The notes under the pieces were generated by a model, which had not been told where the DNA came from, ran no database searches, and saw only the letters and a program-made list of their open reading frames with translations. A DNA stretch of 64,000 bases from Candidatus Curtissbacteria bacterium (GTDB lineage: Bacteria > Patescibacteriota > Microgenomatia > Curtissbacterales > GWA2-41-24), in contig JAUSJC010000010.1 in assembly GCA_030647775.1 (NCBI GenBank), positions 433,334 through 497,333 on the forward strand, given 5' to 3'. Every line of letters begins with the position of its first letter. The stretch's first letter is position 1. Shown here one piece after another: positions 18,571 through 37,686 of the stretch. A program made the position numbers and the translations under genes.

Positions 18571-20121
18571 ATGTTTCAAGACTTGGACTTTGATAATAAG
18601 CCCCATGATCACTGTGGCGTTGCCGGTTGTCTTGCGCCCAAAAATGTAAACGCTTCGAGCGTTGTTATAGAAATGGGCAAAGCCCTCCAGCATCGCGGTC
18701 AAAACGGGGGCGGTATTGCCACCAAAGCCCACGGTAAAAACCTTAAGGTCTACAAAAAGGCCCAAGCATTCAATGAAATTTTCCGCTCGACAGGAATTAT
18801 CGATGAAAATTCTCTGCGCGGTGAAGTTGCTATAGCCCATCTTCGCTATCCAACAGAGGGGAATTTGAGGCGGGATTGTGATACACAACCGTTTTTTGCC
18901 TCTTATAAAGGTTGGGAGCTGGCACTTGGCCATAACGGTAGTATTGTTGATCTGGCAAGACACAGGAAAAAGCTTGAAAAGTTCGGGATCGAACTGGAAT
19001 CTGATTCCGATTCCGAGATTCTGACTTGGCTCATTGTTACCGCCCAGGGCGCCAACTGGAGACAAAAAATCTCAAATGCCTTTTTGGACGTTAAAGGCGC
19101 TTATTCGCTTGTTATGCTAACTGGCGATGACAAGCTTATGGCTCTTCGTGATCCCTGGGGTGTTAGGCCGCTTGTTTGGAGCCAGGATAATGGTCACGTT
19201 TTCGCCGCCTCGGAAACTTGTGCCCTTGATAGAATCGATGTCCGTCATAGCCAAAGAATAGAACGGGGGCAGCTTTTAGTGGCAGATCAGGATGGCGTTT
19301 CAATTTCAAGCTTTATAAAACCTGCCAAAAGGAGTTTTTGCGTTTTTGAAAAACTCTACTTTTCGCACGAGACCTCACTTTGGGATGGTGTCATTGGGGA
19401 AAATAGGGAAAGCTTGGGTCGCCAACTGGCGAAAGAAGAGATTGAAAGAATTAAAAGCGGCGAGTTAAAAGCAGAAATCATCCAAAAAATAGATTATGTA
19501 GTTGCCGTTCCCGATACCGCGTCCCCCGGAGCGCATGCTTTTTGTGAAACTTTGATAAATGAATCCGCAGTAGGCGGCTTAAAACTTAAATACAAAAGGG
19601 GGCTTGTTAAAGAAAGGTACGATTATGCCAAAAGGACATTTATTGAAGACGATCCTTATCTTCGTCAAAAAAACATCGAAAAAAAGTTTTTCATCTCTCC
19701 TAGCATTATCGGTAAATCAATCTATCTGGTTGATGACACGGCTGTTCGCTTGAATACCTTCAAAATCCTTGTTGCTTATCTTCTGCGGGTAGGCGTTCGG
19801 GAGATCCATTGCCGCTTTTTAGCTCCCCGTTTCCTAAATCCCTGCTTTTTAGGTGTTAGTATCGGTTCTCGGGATGAGCTTGGGGCCGTCAGAACCACCA
19901 AGTCGGGTAAATACGAAGCGCTGGAAGAAGACGAAATAAAAAACAAGCTTAAGGTCAGCTCATTGCACTATTTGAGTATCTATGGCATGGCCGCATCCCT
20001 TGGTATGAATTTGGATGAACTAAAAACAACTCATTGCACCGGCTGTCTCGACTACAACAACCCCTTCGATATGCGCCCCTTCGACCCCGAGTTTCGAAAA
20101 ACCACATACCTCACCAAATAG
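18571..20121 (+). CDS. purF: amidophosphoribosyltransferase (PurF-like; N-terminal Ntn glutaminase domain plus PRTase domain)
   Basis: propeptide then CGVAG nucleophile region; PRTase motif IYLVDDTAVRLNTF; C-terminal Cys cluster CTGCLD (Fe-S-type PurF). Confidence 0.75.
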   Translation: MFQDLDFDNKPHDHCGVAGCLAPKNVNASSVVIEMGKALQHRGQNGGGIATKAHGKNLKVYKKAQAFNEIFRSTGIIDENSLRGEVAIAHLRYPTEGNLRRDCDTQPFFASYKGWELALGHNGSIVDLARHRKKLEKFGIELESDSDSEILTWLIVTAQGANWRQKISNAFLDVKGAYSLVMLTGDDKLMALRDPWGVRPLVWSQDNGHVFAASETCALDRIDVRHSQRIERGQLLVADQDGVSISSFIKPAKRSFCVFEKLYFSHETSLWDGVIGENRESLGRQLAKEEIERIKSGELKAEIIQKIDYVVAVPDTASPGAHAFCETLINESAVGGLKLKYKRGLVKERYDYAKRTFIEDDPYLRQKNIEKKFFISPSIIGKSIYLVDDTAVRLNTFKILVAYLLRVGVREIHCRFLAPRFLNPCFLGVSIGSRDELGAVRTTKSGKYEALEEDEIKNKLKVSSLHYLSIYGMAASLGMNLDELKTTHCTGCLDYNNPFDMRPFDPEFRKTTYLTK

Positions 20122-24376: not shown

Positions 24377-25570
24377 ATGTGGCAAAGAATTAAAAACTAT
24401 TACCACCTAGCCCAAGCTTTTTTAGCAGCAGTCATTTTTAATTTTCCCTCAAATAAAATTAAGGTAATCGGCGTTACGGGAACAGACGGCAAGACAACGA
24501 CCGTCCATATGATTTATGAAATTATAAAAGCATCGGGGCAAAAAGTATCCATGATTTCCTCGGTGGGAGCCGCCATTGGATCTAAAGCTTTCGATACAGG
24601 TTTCCATGTTACAACTCCATCAAGCTGGCAGGTTCAAAAATATCTAAGAAAAGCGGCCGACAGCGGACATAAGTATTTCGTCCTGGAAACCACTTCCCAC
24701 GGCCTTGATCAAAACCGCCTGGCCTATGTGCACTTCGAAATTGGAGTCCTGACCAATATCACTCACGACCACCTTGATTACCACGGTACTTGGGAGAACT
24801 ATGCCGCCTCCAAAGCAAAACTTTTCAAAAACGTTGCTTATTCAATTTTGAATTACGATGACCATAAATCATTCTCTTTTCTCCAAAATAAAGCAGCAGG
24901 TCAAGTTATTCCCTATGGAATCAAAAGTGGTGCCGATATCAATACAAAAAATTTTCCGCTTAAGCTCAAAATTAAAGGGGACTACAATTTAGAAAATGCC
25001 TTAGCATCGGCCGCCGCAACCAAAGCGCTAGGTGTTTCAAAGCAAAAAATCGTGAGAGCCCTCGCCAAGTTTTCAAAGGTTCCGGGTAGGATGGAAGAAA
25101 TAAACCTTGGTCAGGGCTTTAACGTTATTGTTGATTTTGCCCATACCCCAAATGCCCTGTCCCAAGCCCTCAGAACCCTAAAACCCAAAAGGCCGGGCCG
25201 TCTCATGGCCGTTTTTGGAGCAGCGGGAGAGAGGGATAAACTCAAAAGGCCGATTATGGGCAGAGTTGCCGATGAGAATGCCGATATCATTATCCTGACT
25301 GCCGAAGATCCAAGAAACGAAAAGGTTTTAGATATCGCCAGCCAGATTAAAAAGGGTATTAAAAATAAAACCGAAGGCAAAAGTCTTTTTGTAATTGAGG
25401 ACAGGGAAAAAGCTATCGGGTATGCCATAAATCTGGCTGCCAAAAATGATATTGTCGGAATTTTTGGCAAGGGTCACGAGAAGAGTATGTGTTTCGGCAA
25501 GAAGGAATCGCCTTGGGACGAATTCCATGTTACTGCAACCGCTATTAGAAGGAGGGTAAATGGCAAGTAA
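24377..25570 (+). CDS. murE: Mur ligase, MurE-like (UDP-MurNAc-L-Ala-D-Glu:diamino acid ligase), lacks the N-terminal domain
   Basis: VIGVTGTDGKTTT P-loop; DYHGTWENYAASKAKLF; the position after ftsI is the conserved murE slot. Confidence 0.75.
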   Translation: MWQRIKNYYHLAQAFLAAVIFNFPSNKIKVIGVTGTDGKTTTVHMIYEIIKASGQKVSMISSVGAAIGSKAFDTGFHVTTPSSWQVQKYLRKAADSGHKYFVLETTSHGLDQNRLAYVHFEIGVLTNITHDHLDYHGTWENYAASKAKLFKNVAYSILNYDDHKSFSFLQNKAAGQVIPYGIKSGADINTKNFPLKLKIKGDYNLENALASAAATKALGVSKQKIVRALAKFSKVPGRMEEINLGQGFNVIVDFAHTPNALSQALRTLKPKRPGRLMAVFGAAGERDKLKRPIMGRVADENADIIILTAEDPRNEKVLDIASQIKKGIKNKTEGKSLFVIEDREKAIGYAINLAAKNDIVGIFGKGHEKSMCFGKKESPWDEFHVTATAIRRRVNGK

Positions 25571-27554
25571 AAATAATTTCGCGGCAGTGGTGCTTGCGGC
25601 GGGTGTCGGCAAAAGGATGAAGTCCAAGACCTCAAAAGTTTTGCACGAAGTCGCCGGCAAACCAATAATTACACGCACCGTGGGGATCGTTGCATCCCTA
25701 AACCCCAGCCAAATAGTTATCGTTGCCAGTTCGCAAAATGCTAAAGACGTAAAAAGAATATTAAACGAAAAACCGGCCATCGCAATTCAAAAAGAGGCCC
25801 TAGGTACTGCTGATGCGACGAAGGCGGGATTGACAAAAATTAAAGAAGGCATAAAAGATATTGCGGTTCTCTATGGTGATGACACCGCCTTTTACAAGCC
25901 GCAGACTATCCTAAACGTCTTTGCGCTTCACCGAAAAACTTCTGCAAAAATTACTTTCGTCACTTTAGAAAAAGAAAATCCGTCTGGTCTTGGCAGAATC
26001 GTCAGAGAGAATGGTAAGCTTATCGGCATTGTCGAGGAAAAGGACGCGACAAAAAAAGAAAGGCAAATCAAAGAAATAAATGACGGTTTATATTTTTTCA
26101 GCAAAGACTGGCTTTTACAAAATCTTTCCAAACTTTTACCCTCTCCAGTAACAGGAGAATATTACTTGACCGATCTTATCAAAATTGCCCTTTCCCAAAA
26201 TCAAAAGGTCGAAACCTATAAATTAAAAGATCCCGGCCAGTGGCACGGAATAAATACCCCCGAAGAGTTGGAAGAAGCCAACAGCAAACTCAAAAACAAA
26301 ATCCATATTATGGGAATCGTCGGTGCCGGTGCAGCGGCCGTTGCCGGAATTGCCAAAGCATACGGTTTTAAAGTTTCTGGATGCGATATTTCGCCGCAGT
26401 CGGCTTACTCAAAAGGGTTAGGTATTAAGGTCCAAAAAGGCCATGACTCCGGCCATTTGAAAGCAGCCGACATGCTTATAATCTCTCCGGCCGTCTTAAA
26501 ACTAGATCCCAAAAACCGGGAGGTGGCAAAAGCAAAAAGTTTAAAAATCCCCGTTTCAACATGGCAGGAATTTCAGGGGGAATATTTACAAGAAGGTAAA
26601 TTTGTTATTGCCGTGGCGGGAGCTTATGGGAAATCAACGACAACCGCCATGGTTTCTCAAATATTAATCGATGCTGGTCTCGACCCGACATGTGAAGTTG
26701 GTGCAAAAGTCCTTTCATGGGATAAAAACTTTAGAGTCGGCAAGTCAAAATACTTCGTCTGCGAGGCGGACGAATACAATAATAACTTTTTAAATTACTC
26801 GCCGGATATTGCCGTCATCTTAAATATCGTCTGGGAGCATCCGGACTTTTTCAAGTCCGAAAAGGATATCACCGCATCGTATCAAAAATTTATTGATAAT
26901 ATCAAACCCGGCGGCACCCTAATCACAGGGTCCGACCCTCTGATACTTAAGCACAGAAAAAACGTCAAAACAGAGAAAATAGGGTCCGACCCTAACATTA
27001 CTAACATTAAACTTTCAATAATCGGTAATTTCCGAAAAGAAAACGCCGCCGCCGCGCTTTCCGTCGCCAAAGCGCTAAACCTTGATCTCCAAAAAGCCAA
27101 AAAATCGATAGAAAATTTCAAAGGCTTGGGGCGCCGTTTGGAGTTAAAAGGGGAGATAGACGGCGTCAAATTTTACGATGATTATGCCGTTCAGCCTTAT
27201 ACGGTCAAAACTACCGCGGACGCGTTAAAAGAAGAATTTAAAGATAAAAAAGTTTTGCTCGTTTTTGAACCACATACTTTTTCTCGCATCGAAACTTTTT
27301 TTGGCGATTTTGTCTCTGCGCTTAAAAAATCAAATGTCGATAAAATCTATATAACAGAAGTTTTTACGGCTAGGGAAAAAGGCAACAAAAAAACACTCGC
27401 TAAAAAACTGGCTAAAAAGGTAGGGAAAAAGGCAAAATTTACCGGATCGCTTGCCCAAACAGCGCAAGAAGTTAAAGATAATCTCGGGAAGTTTGAGATT
27501 GTCCTCTCGATGGGCGCCGGCGATATTTATAAGTTATACGATTTTTTTAAATAA
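25560..27554 (+). CDS. murC: fusion protein: N-terminal GlmU-like sugar-1-phosphate nucleotidyltransferase domain (no LbH acetyltransferase domain) plus C-terminal UDP-N-acetylmuramate--L-alanine ligase MurC
   Basis: N-terminus VVLAAGVGKRMKSKTSKVLHEVAGKPII ... LGTADA ... YGDD (GlmU pyrophosphorylase motifs); C-terminus IMGIVGAGAAAVAGIAKAYGFKVSGCDIS and VIAVAGAYGKSTTT (MurC). Confidence 0.75.
   Translation: MASKNNFAAVVLAAGVGKRMKSKTSKVLHEVAGKPIITRTVGIVASLNPSQIVIVASSQNAKDVKRILNEKPAIAIQKEALGTADATKAGLTKIKEGIKDIAVLYGDDTAFYKPQTILNVFALHRKTSAKITFVTLEKENPSGLGRIVRENGKLIGIVEEKDATKKERQIKEINDGLYFFSKDWLLQNLSKLLPSPVTGEYYLTDLIKIALSQNQKVETYKLKDPGQWHGINTPEELEEANSKLKNKIHIMGIVGAGAAAVAGIAKAYGFKVSGCDISPQSAYSKGLGIKVQKGHDSGHLKAADMLIISPAVLKLDPKNREVAKAKSLKIPVSTWQEFQGEYLQEGKFVIAVAGAYGKSTTTAMVSQILIDAGLDPTCEVGAKVLSWDKNFRVGKSKYFVCEADEYNNNFLNYSPDIAVILNIVWEHPDFFKSEKDITASYQKFIDNIKPGGTLITGSDPLILKHRKNVKTEKIGSDPNITNIKLSIIGNFRKENAAAALSVAKALNLDLQKAKKSIENFKGLGRRLELKGEIDGVKFYDDYAVQPYTVKTTADALKEEFKDKKVLLVFEPHTFSRIETFFGDFVSALKKSNVDKIYITEVFTAREKGNKKTLAKKLAKKVGKKAKFTGSLAQTAQEVKDNLGKFEIVLSMGAGDIYKLYDFFK
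26926..26994. repeat. two copies of the REP-like 15-mer 54 bp apart, in frame inside the MurC fusion gene (each encodes GSDP)
   Basis: cores at 26928-26938 and 26982-26992. Confidence 0.75.
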
Positions 27555-32004: not shown

Positions 32005-33036
32005 ATGGTTCAAATTTTAGGCTTACTGCTATTATCATTTTTTACAATCAGTATTCTCCTGGTTCCGTTTATAAACGCCCTCTATAAAATAAGATTTCAA
32101 AGACGCAGTCAAAAAACTCGCGACATCTTTGAGGCTAGGACTCCAATTTTTGATAAACTTCATGGCCATAAAGTCGGCACTCCGGTAGGCGGTGGAGCCC
32201 TGGTAATTTTAGTTGTGACTGCCCTTTATCTGGTTATTGTAAGTCTTGCCCCGCAGTTGGGGATTGAAAGAACCGCCGTCTACCCTTACAAAAAAGAAGT
32301 CCAAGTTCTCCTCTTCACTTTTCTCTCATTTGGTCTTTTAGGTGCATACGATGATCTTAGAAAAACTTTCGGTTTTACAAAAAATAAATTCTGGGGGATG
32401 CGCTTTCGCCATAAATTCGCTGTCCAGTGGGCCTTAGCACTGGCAGTTGCCTGTTTTCTTTATTTTGGCTTGGGAATTCACATTGTTAACGTCAGATTTT
32501 TTGATGTTTTTGACCTCGGCCTTTTATATATCCCTTTTGCCGCTTTTGTCATCGTTTCTTTTGCCAACGCCGTCAATATTTCAGATGGTCTTGACGGCCT
32601 GGCAACGGGGCTTCTCTTAATTTGCCTCCTAGCCTTCTTAATAATATCCCGCACGATTTTAGATACCACTCTTTCAACATTTTTGGGCCTTTGGATCGGC
32701 GCCCTTATCGCTTTTCTTTATTTCAACATTTGGCCCGCCAGGATTTGGCTTGGCGATGTCGGTGCTCTCTCCTTCGGCGCCACTCTTGCCGTTATCGGTC
32801 TTATTTTAGGAAAGTCAATTGCCCTTCCGGTTATTGGCGGCATGTTTATTGTTGAAGTTGCCTCCTCGCTCGCGCAAATAGTTTCTAAAAAAATCAGGCA
32901 TAAAAAACTTTTCGAGGTTGCCCCGATTCATCTCTGGCTCCAGAATAAAGGCTGGGAAGAATCAAAAATAGTTTTCCGGTTTTGGCTGGCTCAAATTATG
33001 TTCGCCGTATTTGGCCTCTGGCTCTCCTTTTTCTAA
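32005..33036 (+). CDS. mraY: phospho-N-acetylmuramoyl-pentapeptide transferase MraY
   Basis: NISDGLDGLATG and other MraY motifs; polytopic membrane protein. Confidence 0.9.
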   Translation: MVQILGLLLLSFFTISILLVPFINALYKIRFQRRSQKTRDIFEARTPIFDKLHGHKVGTPVGGGALVILVVTALYLVIVSLAPQLGIERTAVYPYKKEVQVLLFTFLSFGLLGAYDDLRKTFGFTKNKFWGMRFRHKFAVQWALALAVACFLYFGLGIHIVNVRFFDVFDLGLLYIPFAAFVIVSFANAVNISDGLDGLATGLLLICLLAFLIISRTILDTTLSTFLGLWIGALIAFLYFNIWPARIWLGDVGALSFGATLAVIGLILGKSIALPVIGGMFIVEVASSLAQIVSKKIRHKKLFEVAPIHLWLQNKGWEESKIVFRFWLAQIMFAVFGLWLSFF

Positions 33037-33074: not shown

Positions 33075-33857
33075 ATGCAAGATAAACGACCAATAGGACT
33101 TTTTGATTCCGGTGTTGGCGGCCTCTCCGTTCTTTTGGAAATTGCCAAAATCCTCCCCAACGAAAACTTCATTTTTCTGGCTGATCAGCTAAACGTTCCC
33201 TATGGCGGCAAAACTAAAAGGGAACTGGAAGACCTAACTGAACGAATCACTTACTTCTTAATGAAGAAAAAAATAAAAGCTCTGGTGGTTGCCTGTAACA
33301 CGGCAACTTGTTACGCCTTGGATTATTTAAGGTTCAATTTCGATATTCCCATAGTCGGCGTCGTTCCGGCCGTTAAGCCCTCCGCCAAACTTACCAAAAC
33401 CGGGAAAATTGCCATTATGTCCACACCAGCCACAGCCAAAAGCGCCTATTTGGCTTCTCTAATAGTAGAATTCGGTAAGCATAAAAATTTCCTTAAACTA
33501 GGATGCGATGGTTTAGAAGATGCTGTCGAGACCTTAGATACAAATGCACTTGAGAAGCTTTTAGATAAATATTGCGCACAGATTAAAAAATTTGGTGCGG
33601 ATGTTGTGATCTTAGGTTGTACCCACTTCCCATTTCTAAAAGAAGATATTAAAAAAAGGCTTGGCCCCAATGTGAAAGTTATTGATTCAGGCCAAGCAAT
33701 TGCTAGGCGTGTTAAGTATCTTCTCAAGAGGAAAGACATTCTTTCTTCATCAAAAGATAGCGACCTTTTTTTTACTACGGGTGACGAGAAAGAATTTTCG
33801 CGCGTTGCTTCCCAACTTTTAGAATCTATTATCAAGTCCCAAAAAGCAGAGATCTAA
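33075..33857 (+). CDS. murI: glutamate racemase MurI
   Basis: IGLFDSGVGGLSVL and VVACNTAT motifs. Confidence 0.9.
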   Translation: MQDKRPIGLFDSGVGGLSVLLEIAKILPNENFIFLADQLNVPYGGKTKRELEDLTERITYFLMKKKIKALVVACNTATCYALDYLRFNFDIPIVGVVPAVKPSAKLTKTGKIAIMSTPATAKSAYLASLIVEFGKHKNFLKLGCDGLEDAVETLDTNALEKLLDKYCAQIKKFGADVVILGCTHFPFLKEDIKKRLGPNVKVIDSGQAIARRVKYLLKRKDILSSSKDSDLFFTTGDEKEFSRVASQLLESIIKSQKAEI

Positions 33858-33858
33858 A

Positions 33859-35208
33859 ATGAATAGAAACAGCGGCGTGAAGATTCTAAGAGAAAAATAT
33901 CCAGTATTTGAATACTCAAGTTTTTCTTATAAGAAAAAGGCTAAATCACTTGTTATCTCTTTTCTTTTTAAGATCCGTCCGGATATTGTATTTGAACCCG
34001 TTTTAGAAATTAAAAATGTTGATAATTTTGAAAATATAGAAAACTTTATTTTCCATTTAGGGTTAATTGAAATGTTGAGCTATTGGAAAGTCACCTGCTC
34101 TCCACTCATAAAAATAAAAGCTGGGTCATTAAACCAAAAACAAATAAATTGGTGGAAAAACTTACTTATAAAAGGTCTTGGAGAATTCTTCTATCAAAAT
34201 GATATCGACTTTAAAGAAGAAGATTTTGTGAGAATTGAAAGTGCTGGCAAAAAACTTTTTCAATATGACAAAGTCGGCCATAAAGATCGTTATTTAATTC
34301 TAAATGGAGGGGGAAGGGATTCTGTTGTCTCATTAGAATTTTTAAAAGAGCTTAAAAAACAAACAAAAATTTTAATGCTCAACCCTACCCAAGCCCAATT
34401 AGCTGTAACCAGAGTTTCTGGCGTAGATAATCCGATCATTGTTAAAAGAGAAATTGATAAAAGATTACTAGATCTAAACCAGAAAGGATATTTAAATGGC
34501 CATACTCCATTCTCGGCATATTTATCTTTCCTTTCTATTCTATGTTCTAAACTTTTTGACTATAAATACATTATTTCTTCAAATGAAAGAAGCTCTAACG
34601 AAGGAAACCTTGAATTTAAAGGCGAGAAGATTAATCACCAATATTCCAAAAGCTTCGAATTCGAGAAATCTTTTAGACAATATGCAAAAGAGAATCTATC
34701 AGATGACATAGAATATTTAAGTTTATTAAGGCCGCTTTACGAAATTCAAATTTCCAGGATATTTTCGAATTACAAACAATATTTCGGTGCATTTAAAAGC
34801 TGCAATAGGGGGCAAAAAACCAACAGCTGGTGTGGGAAATGCCCAAAGTGTCTTTCAATTTTTATTTCCTTATATCCATTCGTAGGTGAAGGTCAGGCAG
34901 AAATAATCTTCGGGAAAAACTTATATAAAGACACAGATCTCGTTGGTCTTCTCGGAGAAATCAGCGGTGAGGGCGAGAACAAACCTTTTGAGTGCGTAGG
35001 AACTTTTGAAGAAATTTTAACAGGTCTTTATCTAAGCTCAAAAAAGGCCGGAGAACAATTAAAAGAACTTCCTCTTTTGGAATTTGCGGTTTCTGAAATT
35101 TTACCTAAATATAATATGGAAGAAATTCAAGAAAGAATCATTAATGGTTGGGACGACGAAAATTTTCTGCCGGGAAAAATTGTTACTACACTCAAAAATA
35201 ATGTTTGA
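33859..35208 (+). CDS. uncharacterised protein with a PP-loop-like motif and a C-terminal Cys cluster, embedded between murI and murD
   Basis: LILNGGGRDSVV resembles the SGGxDS adenine-nucleotide alpha-hydrolase PP-loop; CNRGQKTNSWCGKCPKC Cys cluster; about 140-aa N-terminal region without a recognisable motif. Confidence 0.5.
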   Translation: MNRNSGVKILREKYPVFEYSSFSYKKKAKSLVISFLFKIRPDIVFEPVLEIKNVDNFENIENFIFHLGLIEMLSYWKVTCSPLIKIKAGSLNQKQINWWKNLLIKGLGEFFYQNDIDFKEEDFVRIESAGKKLFQYDKVGHKDRYLILNGGGRDSVVSLEFLKELKKQTKILMLNPTQAQLAVTRVSGVDNPIIVKREIDKRLLDLNQKGYLNGHTPFSAYLSFLSILCSKLFDYKYIISSNERSSNEGNLEFKGEKINHQYSKSFEFEKSFRQYAKENLSDDIEYLSLLRPLYEIQISRIFSNYKQYFGAFKSCNRGQKTNSWCGKCPKCLSIFISLYPFVGEGQAEIIFGKNLYKDTDLVGLLGEISGEGENKPFECVGTFEEILTGLYLSSKKAGEQLKELPLLEFAVSEILPKYNMEEIQERIINGWDDENFLPGKIVTTLKNNV

Positions 35209-36571
35209 AGAATTCAAAGATAAAAATATTTTGATTCTGGGAGCAGGTCGGGAAGGGTTTTCTGCTTTAAAGTTGCTAAGAAAGATTTTCCCACGGAAAA
35301 GATTAACTATCTGCGATGAGAAAAATTTAGAGAAACTTGATAAAGAAATTCAGGAAATCGTCAGGGGTGATAAAAATTTAGAAGCAAATTTTGGCAAACA
35401 CTATTTAGATTTTCCTGGAAATATCGATCTTATAATTAAATCTCCTGGTATCCCGCGAAAAAAATTGGGAAAAATATCTGCGCAGATAACATCAGCAACG
35501 AAAATATTCTTCAAATACTGCAAAGGGACCATAATTGGTATCACCGGAACTAAAGGCAAAAGCACTACATCGTCACTTGTTTATAAGATTCTCAAAGACA
35601 ATGGTTTTAATGTTGAACTGGTAGGTAATATTGGTAAACCGGCAATTATATATCTTGACGCAAAAACAGAAGACAAAATTTTTATTTATGAACTATCAAG
35701 TTTCCAGCTTGAAGATCTACGTCAAAGCCCGCATATTGGGGTTATTTTGAATATCTATGAGGAACATCTGGATTATCACGAAAGCTTCGAAGATTATAAA
35801 AAAAGTAAAGTAAATATTACCCGGTGGCAAAAACCTAATGATTTTTTAATTTATAATTTTAATGCAGACTTAAAAGCGGTAATTATTTCCCAGACAAAGG
35901 CACAAAAAATCCCCTTTAGTATTTCAGAAGCAATAAATGACGGCTATTCTATTGAAAACGACTGGATAGTTAACGCAACGGACGGAAAGAAAGAAAAAAT
36001 AATGTCGCTTGATAATATAAATCTTATCGGAAAATTTAATTTGAATAATGTAATTGCTTCTATTGCAGTTACTAAAATTTTTGGGATCGAGAACAGAAAA
36101 ATAGAAAAATCCGTTAAATCATTTAAACCGCTGGAGCATCGTCTTCAGCTTGTAGGCACTTTCAGAGGCATTACATTTTATAATGATTCTATAGCCACAA
36201 ATCCGGGGGCAACGATAGCAGCAATGGATGCTCTTGGGGATAATTTGCAAACGATAATCCTTGGCGGATACGAACGGGGATTAAATTTCGATAATCTGGC
36301 AACGGAGTTAATCAACAGCAAGGTTGAAAACACTATTCTCTTTCCCGTAACCGGCAAGAGAATAAAGGAAGCAATACTTACACAAAAGCCGGACTGCAAG
36401 ATTCATTTCTATGATGCTAGTAATATGTCAGAAGCCGTGGCACTTGCTTGCTCAAATACGCAAGAGGGCAAAATTTGTTTACTCTCCCCAGCTTCGCCGA
36501 GTTTTAACATGTTCAAAAATTACGAGGACCGCGGCAGGCAGTTTGCCGCCGAAGTTAATAAACTAACGTGA
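35201..36571 (+). CDS. murD: UDP-N-acetylmuramoylalanine--D-glutamate ligase MurD
   Basis: ILILGAGREGFSALKLL; IGITGTKGKSTT P-loop; start set at MFEEFK (overlaps the stop of the previous gene). Confidence 0.85.
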   Translation: MFEEFKDKNILILGAGREGFSALKLLRKIFPRKRLTICDEKNLEKLDKEIQEIVRGDKNLEANFGKHYLDFPGNIDLIIKSPGIPRKKLGKISAQITSATKIFFKYCKGTIIGITGTKGKSTTSSLVYKILKDNGFNVELVGNIGKPAIIYLDAKTEDKIFIYELSSFQLEDLRQSPHIGVILNIYEEHLDYHESFEDYKKSKVNITRWQKPNDFLIYNFNADLKAVIISQTKAQKIPFSISEAINDGYSIENDWIVNATDGKKEKIMSLDNINLIGKFNLNNVIASIAVTKIFGIENRKIEKSVKSFKPLEHRLQLVGTFRGITFYNDSIATNPGATIAAMDALGDNLQTIILGGYERGLNFDNLATELINSKVENTILFPVTGKRIKEAILTQKPDCKIHFYDASNMSEAVALACSNTQEGKICLLSPASPSFNMFKNYEDRGRQFAAEVNKLT

Positions 36572-37686
36572 GAAATTATTTGGTCAGGTCAAAACAAAAG
36601 GCACTGGACCTGCCTTTTATTACTGCCACTGTCCTTATGGTTATACTTGGTCTCGTCATCATCTATGATGCCACGCCGGTTGCCGCCTTTCATGATTTTG
36701 GCGACAAGCTTTACTACTTCAAAAACCAGCTCATTTGGGCAACATTAGGTTCTTTTGCCCTCATCTTCTTTAGTTTTTTTGATTACCATAAGCTCTTGAA
36801 ATTTGCTTACCCGCTCCTTTCGGCAAGCGTTCTTCTTTTATTGGCAGTTCTTGTGCCCGGTATCGGTTCTAAAATTTACGGGGCCCGCCGTTGGATTTCT
36901 ATTGCCGGTTTTTCTTTTCAACCTTCGGAAATTGCCAAACTGGCGCTAATTTTCTACGAAACTGCGGTTATCTCCAAATTTGAAAACTTTAAAATTTCTT
37001 TTAAAGATGCTTTTTTAGTAATCTTTCTGCCGGCGTTTGCCGTTACCGGTCTTGTCCTAGTCCAGCCGGACCTGGGAACAGCCTTAATTTTGGCTAGCCT
37101 TACTTTAACAATTTACTTTGTAGGCGGTGGTCCACTTAAACATCTTGTTTTGGCCCTTTCTGCCATAATTGTTGCGGGAGTTGGTGCAATAATTCTTGAA
37201 CCATACCGTTTTGCTAGGTTCAAATCGTTCCTCGACCCCGCTCACGACCCGCAAGGTGCTTCTTACCAGATAAACCAAATATTAATCGCTCTTTCCCAAG
37301 GCGGGCTTTTCGGTGTCGGGCTTGGAGGCTCCCGCAGCAAGTTTGACTTCATCCCCGAAGTTCAGGGAGACGCAATTTTTGCCGTTTTTGTTGAAGAACT
37401 GGGCTTTATTGGTGCCGTACTTTTAATTGCGCTTTTCCTTTTTATCATCTCCAGGGGCATCGCCATTGCCAGAAATGCCCCGGACCCGACCGGCAAAATT
37501 TTGGCAATCGGACTGGTTGGCTTAATTGCCGTCCAGGCGCTTTTTAATCTGGCTTCTGTCGTTGCCCTTGTCCCCCTAACCGGTGTACCGCTTCCGTTTA
37601 TTTCCTATGGTGGTTCGTCGCTTTTTGTTATAGTTGCCGCGATTGGTATTCTTATTAATATTGAAAGGCAATCGCAAAAAGCATGA
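36568..37686 (+). CDS. ftsW: FtsW (SEDS family peptidoglycan polymerase / lipid II flippase)
   Basis: SEDS motifs (FQPSE, PDLGT, ISYGGSS); position between murD and murG. Confidence 0.9.
   Translation: MRNYLVRSKQKALDLPFITATVLMVILGLVIIYDATPVAAFHDFGDKLYYFKNQLIWATLGSFALIFFSFFDYHKLLKFAYPLLSASVLLLLAVLVPGIGSKIYGARRWISIAGFSFQPSEIAKLALIFYETAVISKFENFKISFKDAFLVIFLPAFAVTGLVLVQPDLGTALILASLTLTIYFVGGGPLKHLVLALSAIIVAGVGAIILEPYRFARFKSFLDPAHDPQGASYQINQILIALSQGGLFGVGLGGSRSKFDFIPEVQGDAIFAVFVEELGFIGAVLLIALFLFIISRGIAIARNAPDPTGKILAIGLVGLIAVQALFNLASVVALVPLTGVPLPFISYGGSSLFVIVAAIGILINIERQSQKA

Follow-up and report, generated by a model that had tools for sequence, protein, structure and literature searches.

How does a bacterium come to encode, side by side in one cell-wall gene cluster, two ways of providing the D-glutamate (D-Glu) of its peptidoglycan precursor? 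The question is raised by a 64,000-nucleotide stretch of contig JAUSJC010000010.1 from a Candidatus Curtissbacteria bacterium; we call this whole stretch the window. In its division and cell wall (dcw) cluster, an open reading frame (ORF) for a 449-aa protein lies between the glutamate racemase gene murI and the ligase gene murD. A first-pass annotation, made from the letters alone, had correctly placed the ORF there, with an 8-nt overlap onto murD, and had left its product as an uncharacterised enzyme that might amidate or epimerise the stem peptide. The protein is homologous to MurL, has a PP-loop fold and the conserved motifs of that family, and its gene is linked, in some genomes by fusion, to a murD; the window MurD has the MurD2 signature and falls in the corresponding clade. 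Read from its sequence, it is very probably a MurL-family enzyme that works with a MurD2-type ligase, MurD2 adding L-glutamate (L-Glu) and MurL epimerising it. It is a protein of a known kind, unannotated here, in a branch of MurL distant from the characterised enzymes. The real anomaly of the locus is murI, a point missed in the first-pass annotation, as was the MurD2 type of the ligase. The module and its edges are as follows.

32005–33036, + strand: mraY, left edge of the variable D-Glu module slot; precedes murI-murD or murL-murD in relatives
33075–33857, + strand: murI, intact gene for glutamate racemase (TIGR00067; 260 aa), unexpected as a third gene in this module
33859–35208, + strand: murL, the formerly 'uncharacterised' ORF; ATG start, 449 aa
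35201–36571, + strand: murD, predicted MurD2-type ligase (TIGR01087, specificity residues, tree)
36568–37686, + strand: ftsW, right edge of the variable slot (gene order in the window and in relatives)

The dcw genes around murL are tightly packed. The murI stop codon (TAA) ends at 33857, with one base left before the ATG of murL. The overlap of murL with murD is 8 nt (ATGTTTGA), that of murD with ftsW 4 nt (GTGA). The identities first given to the two neighbours hold, with MurI passing TIGR00067 at 217 bits (cutoff 146.65) and MurD passing TIGR01087 at 341 bits (cutoff 211.95).

Family, fold and gene linkage of the 449-residue protein

In NCBIfam the sole match of the protein is NF041275, the model for MurL (UDP-N-acetyl-alpha-D-muramoyl-L-alanyl-L-glutamate epimerase), with an E value of 9.7e-74 and residues 56–447 aligned to positions 53–445 of the 447-position profile (393 positions in all). 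Precomputed matches from a newer Pfam release place PF26299 (MurL_N) and PF26298 (MurL_epimerase_C) on this protein and on all listed relatives; an older release gave it no match because the MurL models are newer. As a reference we used the annotated murL-murD pair of Xanthomonas sacchari from a plasmid-collection record. A tblastn search reached the annotated X. sacchari murL at E 8e-49, and the two proteins agree at 34 of the 40 positions that are near-invariant (at least 97% conserved) across 98 sequences. Those shared include G152, D154, R197, G214-H215-P217, E243, S245, N259-H260-Q261, K264 and E269, as well as S314-C315-N316, W324-C325, C328, K330-C331 and K375-P376-C379-G381. At the 77 columns with at least 93% conservation, the window protein has no deviation. 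In NCBI records the protein nevertheless appears as 'hypothetical protein', like the majority of its homologues that bear a name, and its partner as a D-glutamate ligase. The comparison with MurL that the first-pass annotation had recommended was decisive, and the view that the activity had not been characterised falls: MurL and MurD2 are known biochemically and have curated NCBIfam and Pfam models. Four segments of the protein matter for what follows.

33859–34278, + strand: N-terminal domain MurL_N (about residues 1–140, approximate boundary; Pfam PF26299 on the identical protein)
34306–34323, + strand: PP-loop GGGRDS (residues 150–155), predicted ATP pyrophosphatase site (invariant residues, alignment to TtuA and MnmA, fold)
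34801–34851, + strand: Cys cluster C315-x9-C325-x2-C328-x2-C331 (CNRGQKTNSWCGKCPKC, residues 315–331), with four invariant Cys
34981–35004, + strand: KPFECVGT motif with invariant Cys379 (K375, P376, C379 and G381 at least 97% conserved in 98 sequences including Xanthomonas)

Across 27 homologues, residues G151, G152, D154, S155, C315, C325, C328 and C331 never vary; in the set of 98 sequences, to which a Xanthomonas MurL belongs, each of them apart from G151 and S155 still reaches at least 97% identity. GGGRDS and the Cys cluster, both singled out at first pass, are thus not chance matches. When a profile of the family is aligned with TtuA (E 4e-6) and MnmA, its G-G-G-K/R-D-S segment falls on their SGGKDS PP-loop, and the first-pass reading of the motif as PP-loop-like was right. 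An AlphaFold2 model built on the 27-sequence alignment (mean predicted local distance difference test score 93.2, predicted template modelling score 0.92) bears out the PP-loop fold. Foldseek searches of the Protein Data Bank (PDB) with this model returned the QueC-like QatC (435 aligned columns), TtuA, MnmA, ThiI, Cap9, argininosuccinate synthase and NMN synthetase, and all the listed matches are PP-loop ATP pyrophosphatases. QueC of Bacillus subtilis (3bl5) superposes with a template modelling score of 0.70 on the target. The N-terminal region of about 140 residues, first described as lacking similarity, still finds no match when the PDB is searched by sequence, but Pfam now defines it as MurL_N. 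It is modelled confidently as a beta/alpha domain and may bind the substrate. By analogy with QueC, the four invariant Cys may form a structural zinc site; Cys379 is a candidate acid/base residue for proton exchange at C-alpha, as are the invariant His215, His260 and Lys264 for that exchange.

Relatives of MurL occur in at least 579 species-representative genomes and in at least about 8,000 protein clusters at E < 1e-5, ranging over Patescibacteria, Bacteroidales, Marinilabiliales, Acidobacteria-labelled metagenome-assembled genomes (MAGs) and others. Gene linkage was counted in the best 80 species-level loci of these genomes. In 63 of the 80, murL has a murD homologue after it, and in three more a single ORF spans MurL and MurD.

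L044, 6545–8854: MurL-MurD fusion, 769 aa
L045, 7947–10475: MurL-MurD fusion, 842 aa
L071, 7911–10700: MurL-MurD fusion, 929 aa

The order in bacteria of the Candidate Phyla Radiation (CPR) is mraY-murL-murD-ftsW-murG, and in Bacteroidales, Marinilabiliales and others the murL-murD pair stands outside the dcw cluster. Within 8 kb of murL, murI was found in none of the 80 loci. This neighbourhood survey, in which murL-murD linkage is conserved across phyla, upholds the functional tie to the Mur ligases that had been drawn from the gene's position.

Several details of these loci deserve mention. The fusions come from three MAGs, one of Microgenomates, one unclassified and one of Marinilabiliales, and a sequencing frameshift is possible for such single ORFs. 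Loci L003, L016, L019, L047 and others, of Paceibacteria/Nealsonbacteria-type CPR, have 0.5–3.9 kb with one to three unannotated ORFs (145–688 aa) between murL and murD; in Curtissbacteria and Bacteroidota the two genes instead overlap. MurL-like proteins are also encoded on Pseudonocardia plasmids, at L116 3866–5266 (P. alni pPaSha1) and in two further records (H3 and H4). The L116 protein keeps 30 of the 40 family-invariant positions, including the PP-loop, the Cys cluster and KPFECVG. Its annotated neighbours are WD40, ParA-like and helix-turn-helix proteins, murD not being among them, and it is possibly a paralogue of MurL that acts on a different substrate. Record titles are unreliable as taxonomy: L004, L014, L049, L054, L058 and others have CPR-type gene order and low GC under titles such as 'uncultured Enterobacteriaceae', 'Pseudomonadales' or 'Saccharibacteria'.

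Reviews place MurL and MurD2 only in Xanthomonadales, in a few Alphaproteobacteria and in rare actinobacteria, add orthologues of low similarity from a fungus, from cyanobacteria and from an amoeba, and call the pair limited to relatively few genera and hence a narrow-spectrum drug target (PMC8788868, PMC5808125). In the literature that could be searched, neither MurL nor MurD2 is mentioned together with CPR bacteria. The murL-murD2 pair is common in Patescibacteria and Bacteroidota, well beyond a few genera, which goes past that literature. Since the evidence points to MurL and an L-Glu-type MurD2, pathway reconstructions for Patescibacteria that rely on murI would be misled.

The partner ligase and the proposed route

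Escherichia coli MurD and Xanthomonas oryzae MurD2 are separated by residues D182/K348/A414/L416 versus E197/R358/P433/F435; the E197D/R358K double mutant of MurD2 switches to D-Glu, and the K319T mutant of E. coli MurD gains the use of L-Glu (PMC8788868, PMC5808125). Residues are given here at E. coli MurD positions 182 / 319 / 348 / 414 / 416.

Window MurD: E188 / I331 / R359 / P433 / F435
X. sacchari MurD2: E / I / R / P / F (identical to window MurD)
63 MurL-linked MurDs: E in 61 / L or I in 61 (Q and F once each) / R in 63 / P, A, S or T / F or Y (L once)
E. coli MurD: D / K / K / A / L
PDB 7sir MurD: D / K / K / A / F
Streptococcus agalactiae MurD (3lk7): T / K / R / A / W
murI-linked Curtissbacteria MurDs: E / F or Y / K / A / F

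Linkage to MurL is tracked best by Arg at 348 together with a non-Lys aliphatic residue at 319; Glu182 alone fails. In a neighbour-joining tree the window MurD stands among MurL-linked MurDs and separate from murI-linked ones. Its identity is 45–51% to MurDs from slots that hold murL-murD2 (type B) and 40–43% to those from slots that hold murI-murD (type A). It deviates at one of 60 conserved positions, by a conservative E316Q. Judged by these residues and by its place in the tree, the downstream MurD is predicted to be a ligase of the L-Glu-adding MurD2 type, and no second MurD-like gene was found in the 64-kb window.

The route such a pair would follow is known from other bacteria. MurL (XOO_1319) and MurD2 (XOO_1320) have been characterised biochemically in X. 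oryzae, Micromonospora and Salinispora, in hosts without glutamate racemase and D-amino-acid aminotransferase (PMC8788868, PMC5808125). According to the reviews by Feng et al., MurL consumes one ATP, releases AMP and works in the L-to-D direction only; adenylation of the Glu alpha-carboxylate was proposed there, and the enzyme was described as having no known conserved domains (PMC8788868, PMC5808125). In the window, MurD2 would join L-Glu, rather than D-Glu, onto UDP-MurNAc-L-Ala. MurL would then bind ATP at its QueC-like PP-loop domain, adenylate the alpha-carboxylate of the terminal L-Glu and invert the acidified C-alpha, after which the adenylate would be hydrolysed. What is said here of the reaction, of its ATP/AMP stoichiometry and of its single direction is carried over by analogy from the Xanthomonas and actinobacterial enzymes, and we infer that the distant CPR branch has the same epimerase activity. 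The QueC-like PP-loop core fits the ATP-to-AMP chemistry reported for MurL and gives it a structural rationale. Of the activities first entertained for this protein, ATP-dependent epimerisation of the stem peptide is the best supported.

A number of observations pull the other way. The protein scores 248 bits on NF041275, far under the equivalog cutoff of 700, and is only 27% identical to the MurL of X. sacchari (Xanthomonadales). That model is specific to Xanthomonadales, and ten other homologues (from CPR, Bacteroidota, Acidobacteria-labelled records and other MAGs) reach only 230–277 bits on it; such similar low scores speak for a large branch equidistant from the characterised clade and not for exclusion from the family. 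The MurD signature is not fully diagnostic, since Glu at 182 also occurs in murI-linked CPR MurDs and the D-Glu-specific Streptococcus MurD has Arg at 348. The constraint on murL is looser (omega 0.23 against L082, a type-B relative) than on the flanks (0.06–0.12). Finally, unlike the published MurL/MurD2 hosts, this genome has an intact and selected murI directly upstream of murL, so that an alternative route is not obviously needed in it.

Two modules in one slot, and murI beside murL

Where, then, does the racemase gene come from? The closest relatives of the window MurI are Curtissbacteria MurIs (63–80% identity; 76–80% to type-A relatives). Every MurI-relative context examined, seven distinct loci (L086/87, L088/89, L090/91, L092, L111, L112 and L113/114), is of type A, with the order mraY-murI-murD-ftsW and no murL. 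The type-B contexts (L083–85, L006, L118 and L082), from Curtissbacteria and close relatives, read mraY-murL-murD-ftsW with no murI in the slot, and in L082 the MraY C-terminus leads directly into murL. Proteins flanking the slot in these genomes are 77–91% identical to those of the window. Two non-homologous D-Glu modules alternate in the mraY–ftsW slot of Curtissbacteria, which makes it a concrete system for studying the non-homologous displacement of an essential pathway step. Among all loci seen, the window alone has murI-murL-murD2, and a metagenome scan with MurI for three-gene arrangements returned one close relative only, of type A. In the type-A locus L113 (5785–7063), murD is called as two ORFs of 74 and 357 aa, from a frameshift or a sequencing error.

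An assembly artefact and gene decay were both rejected. An assembly chimera at the murI-murL junction is contradicted by an independent Logan contig (SRR13727527) that is 100% identical over 7,350 bp, covering the whole module; murI and murL would, moreover, offer an assembler no shared homology for a crossover. The type-A locus L111 comes from this run too. Nor does decay of murI or of murL fit, since conserved residues are intact bar conservative changes (A103S and A134G in MurI) and murI dN/dS is low (0.06–0.08, with dS near saturation). The DSGVGG, ACNTA and GCTH motifs of MurI are present, and the protein shows no acceleration, with 6–9 unique changes in the window versus 15–20 in relatives.

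The module is also a mosaic. By blastn against the type-B locus L082, murL is 86% identical over nt 33886–34880, after which similarity is undetectable to 36473 and resumes at 80% from there onward. The intervening segment is listed here.

34880–36473, + strand, approximate boundaries: segment of about 1.6 kb (murL 3′ end and most of murD), of more distant ancestry than its flanks

In the proteins, MurL residues 1–340 are 85% identical to L082 (dS 0.61) and residues 341–449 only 39% (dS 1.69); the MurDs are 51% identical with saturated dS, compared with dS values of 0.95 for ftsW and 1.23 for murG. There is a recombination breakpoint inside murL. To the left, murF-mraY-murI is collinear with the type-A locus L112 at 79% DNA identity through the end of murI. 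Together with the break against L082, this collinearity means that the locus combines at least three ancestries.

For murD, a type-A/type-B mosaic within the gene was rejected, its identity being uniformly low along the gene, with type B always at least equal to type A. Pure rate acceleration (91 versus 39 unique changes in a Tajima test, p 5e-6) is disfavoured because dS is also raised and the break is sharp; replacement of murD by a distant allele fits better. The best non-self MurD relative in a collection of 5.8 billion proteins is 55% identical and sits in a type-B locus, and no donor above that identity was found in the collection.

Base composition sets the pair apart as well. The GC content of murL and murD is 0.32 and 0.36 (neighbours 0.41–0.45), and at third codon positions 0.28 and 0.33 (surrounding dcw genes 0.39–0.49). 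A recent horizontal gain of a low-GC murL-murD cassette specific to this genome was rejected, as the same dip appears in L082 and L083. Throughout the lineage the cassette is low in GC. For its AT-richness (window 33800–36200; L082 and L083), lower expression, relaxed constraint or frequent exchange are possible causes.

The simplest reading of murI-murL-murD2 is a recombinant that encodes both routes. What this means for the cell may be read in two ways. It is quite possible, if short of an even chance, that MurL and MurD2 are functional but redundant or transitional, with murI supplying D-Glu and the locus a recombination intermediate between routes from which murI or murL will disappear. 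At issue here is the pathway's role, not the protein's identity. Such an intermediate is what one would expect from close relatives with one module each, from a three-gene arrangement seen only in the window, from a breakpoint within murL and from the raised murL omega. It sits less well with murI, murL and murD that are all intact at conserved positions, and with a murI that evolves under strong constraint without acceleration. The sole MurD-like gene of the window being of MurD2 type, D-Glu made by MurI would also have no obvious canonical ligase nearby, and D-Glu is barely used by X. oryzae MurD2 (PMC8788868, PMC5808125).

More doubtful, and put forward tentatively, is a maintained dual system rather than a passing intermediate. 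In one version, MurI may interconvert scavenged D- and L-glutamate, and MurD2 and MurL may commit L-Glu irreversibly to the wall precursor; in another, MurL may rescue precursors bearing mis-incorporated L-Glu. On a wider view of this reading, the mraY–ftsW slot of Curtissbacteria would be a hot spot at which recombination swaps two non-homologous D-Glu solutions, and Patescibacteria and many Bacteroidota would have the alternative route as a major one, not as a rarity of a few genera.

Other identities, neighbouring genes and known systems

Two other identities have been weighed against that of a MurL epimerase. In the first, the adenylated Glu alpha-carboxylate would be passed to ammonia, giving a D-iso-glutamine precursor with an outcome like that of MurT/GatD or AsnB/LtsA. 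Amidation of an adenylated carboxylate is common among PP-loop enzymes (QueC, NAD synthetase and asparagine synthetase are examples), the fold matches belong to this superfamily, and with murI present epimerisation is not strictly required. The characterised members of the MurL family are epimerases, however, and the catalytic-looking motifs are common to Xanthomonas MurL. The partner ligase has the L-Glu signature, so that an L residue would remain unless epimerised, and the module contains no glutaminase partner. Amidation, offered as an option at first pass, finds no support here and is highly improbable.

The second, a QueC-like enzyme for deazapurines or tRNA modification that sits among the dcw genes fortuitously, is effectively refuted: its case consists of the Foldseek matches to QueC, QatC and Cap9, some JGI records that name homologues 'QueC' and one homologue with a PF06508 match, and against it stand the absence of any Pfam or NCBIfam match of the window protein to the QueC family (PF06508/TIGR00364), a resemblance at fold level only (13–18% identity, confined to the core), the extra MurL_N domain, and linkage or fusion to murD across phyla. 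The first-pass annotation had held that clear homology to QueC or TilS would make the location fortuitous; the fold-level likeness falls short of that, and murD follows murL in most loci. We return, then, to a MurL-family epimerase as the reading of this protein.

The wider dcw cluster begins with mraW (20813), an ftsI-like penicillin-binding protein gene (22171), a murE-like ligase gene (24377) and a nucleotidyltransferase-MurC fusion (25560), continues with murB, murA, ddl, murF and mraY, and closes after murI, murL and murD with ftsW, murG, ftsQ, ftsA and ftsZ. The fusion (25560–27554, + strand, 664 aa) joins an N-terminal nucleotidyltransferase (NTP_transferase/IspD-like) to a complete MurC-type Mur ligase. 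Similar fusions occur in relatives (L083, 874 aa; L088, 662 aa), one with an extra HAD domain, and could couple a MurU-like sugar-nucleotide step to MurC. A few kilobases upstream of the cluster, 18571–20118 (+ strand) encodes a protein of 516 aa that has a glutamine amidotransferase domain of class II (GATase_6/7) and in which no synthetase domain was recognised; this could be an amidotransferase of the AsnB/LtsA kind with a bearing on amidation of the stem peptide. In a type-A Curtissbacteria dcw cluster (L090/L091, 3238–4656), a 472-aa ORF without a Pfam match lies between ddl and murF.

Among known systems, MurL of Xanthomonas (XOO_1319) is closest to the window protein. Both have the two-domain architecture and nearly the same length (449 aa in the window, 451 in Xanthomonas), and they have in common the PP-loop, the Cys4 cluster and the NGH-P, SNE-S, NHQ-SK and KPFECVG motifs. 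In both, the gene lies directly upstream of, and overlaps, that of a MurD2-type ligase. The window gene differs in lying within the dcw cluster, between mraY and ftsW, and, compared with published MurL hosts, it alone has a glutamate racemase gene directly upstream. The window MurD matches X. sacchari MurD2 at five specificity-related positions and in gene order; overall the two are 28% identical, and the window MurD represents an orphan lineage, its best non-self relative being 55% identical.

QueC, QatC and Cap9 share the PP-loop ATP-pyrophosphatase fold with the window protein, whose C-terminal Cys cluster may correspond to theirs, and QueC chemistry starts with carboxylate adenylation. The window protein has, beyond QueC, an additional N-terminal domain and a C-terminal helical region, and its context is cell-wall synthesis, whereas these enzymes serve queuosine synthesis or phage defence. 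The classical route, MurI with a canonical MurD, occupies in Curtissbacteria the same mraY–ftsW slot as murL-murD2. The two differ in chemistry: MurI racemises free glutamate reversibly and without ATP, whereas MurL acts on a nucleotide-peptide, consumes ATP and runs in one direction (PMC8788868, PMC5808125).

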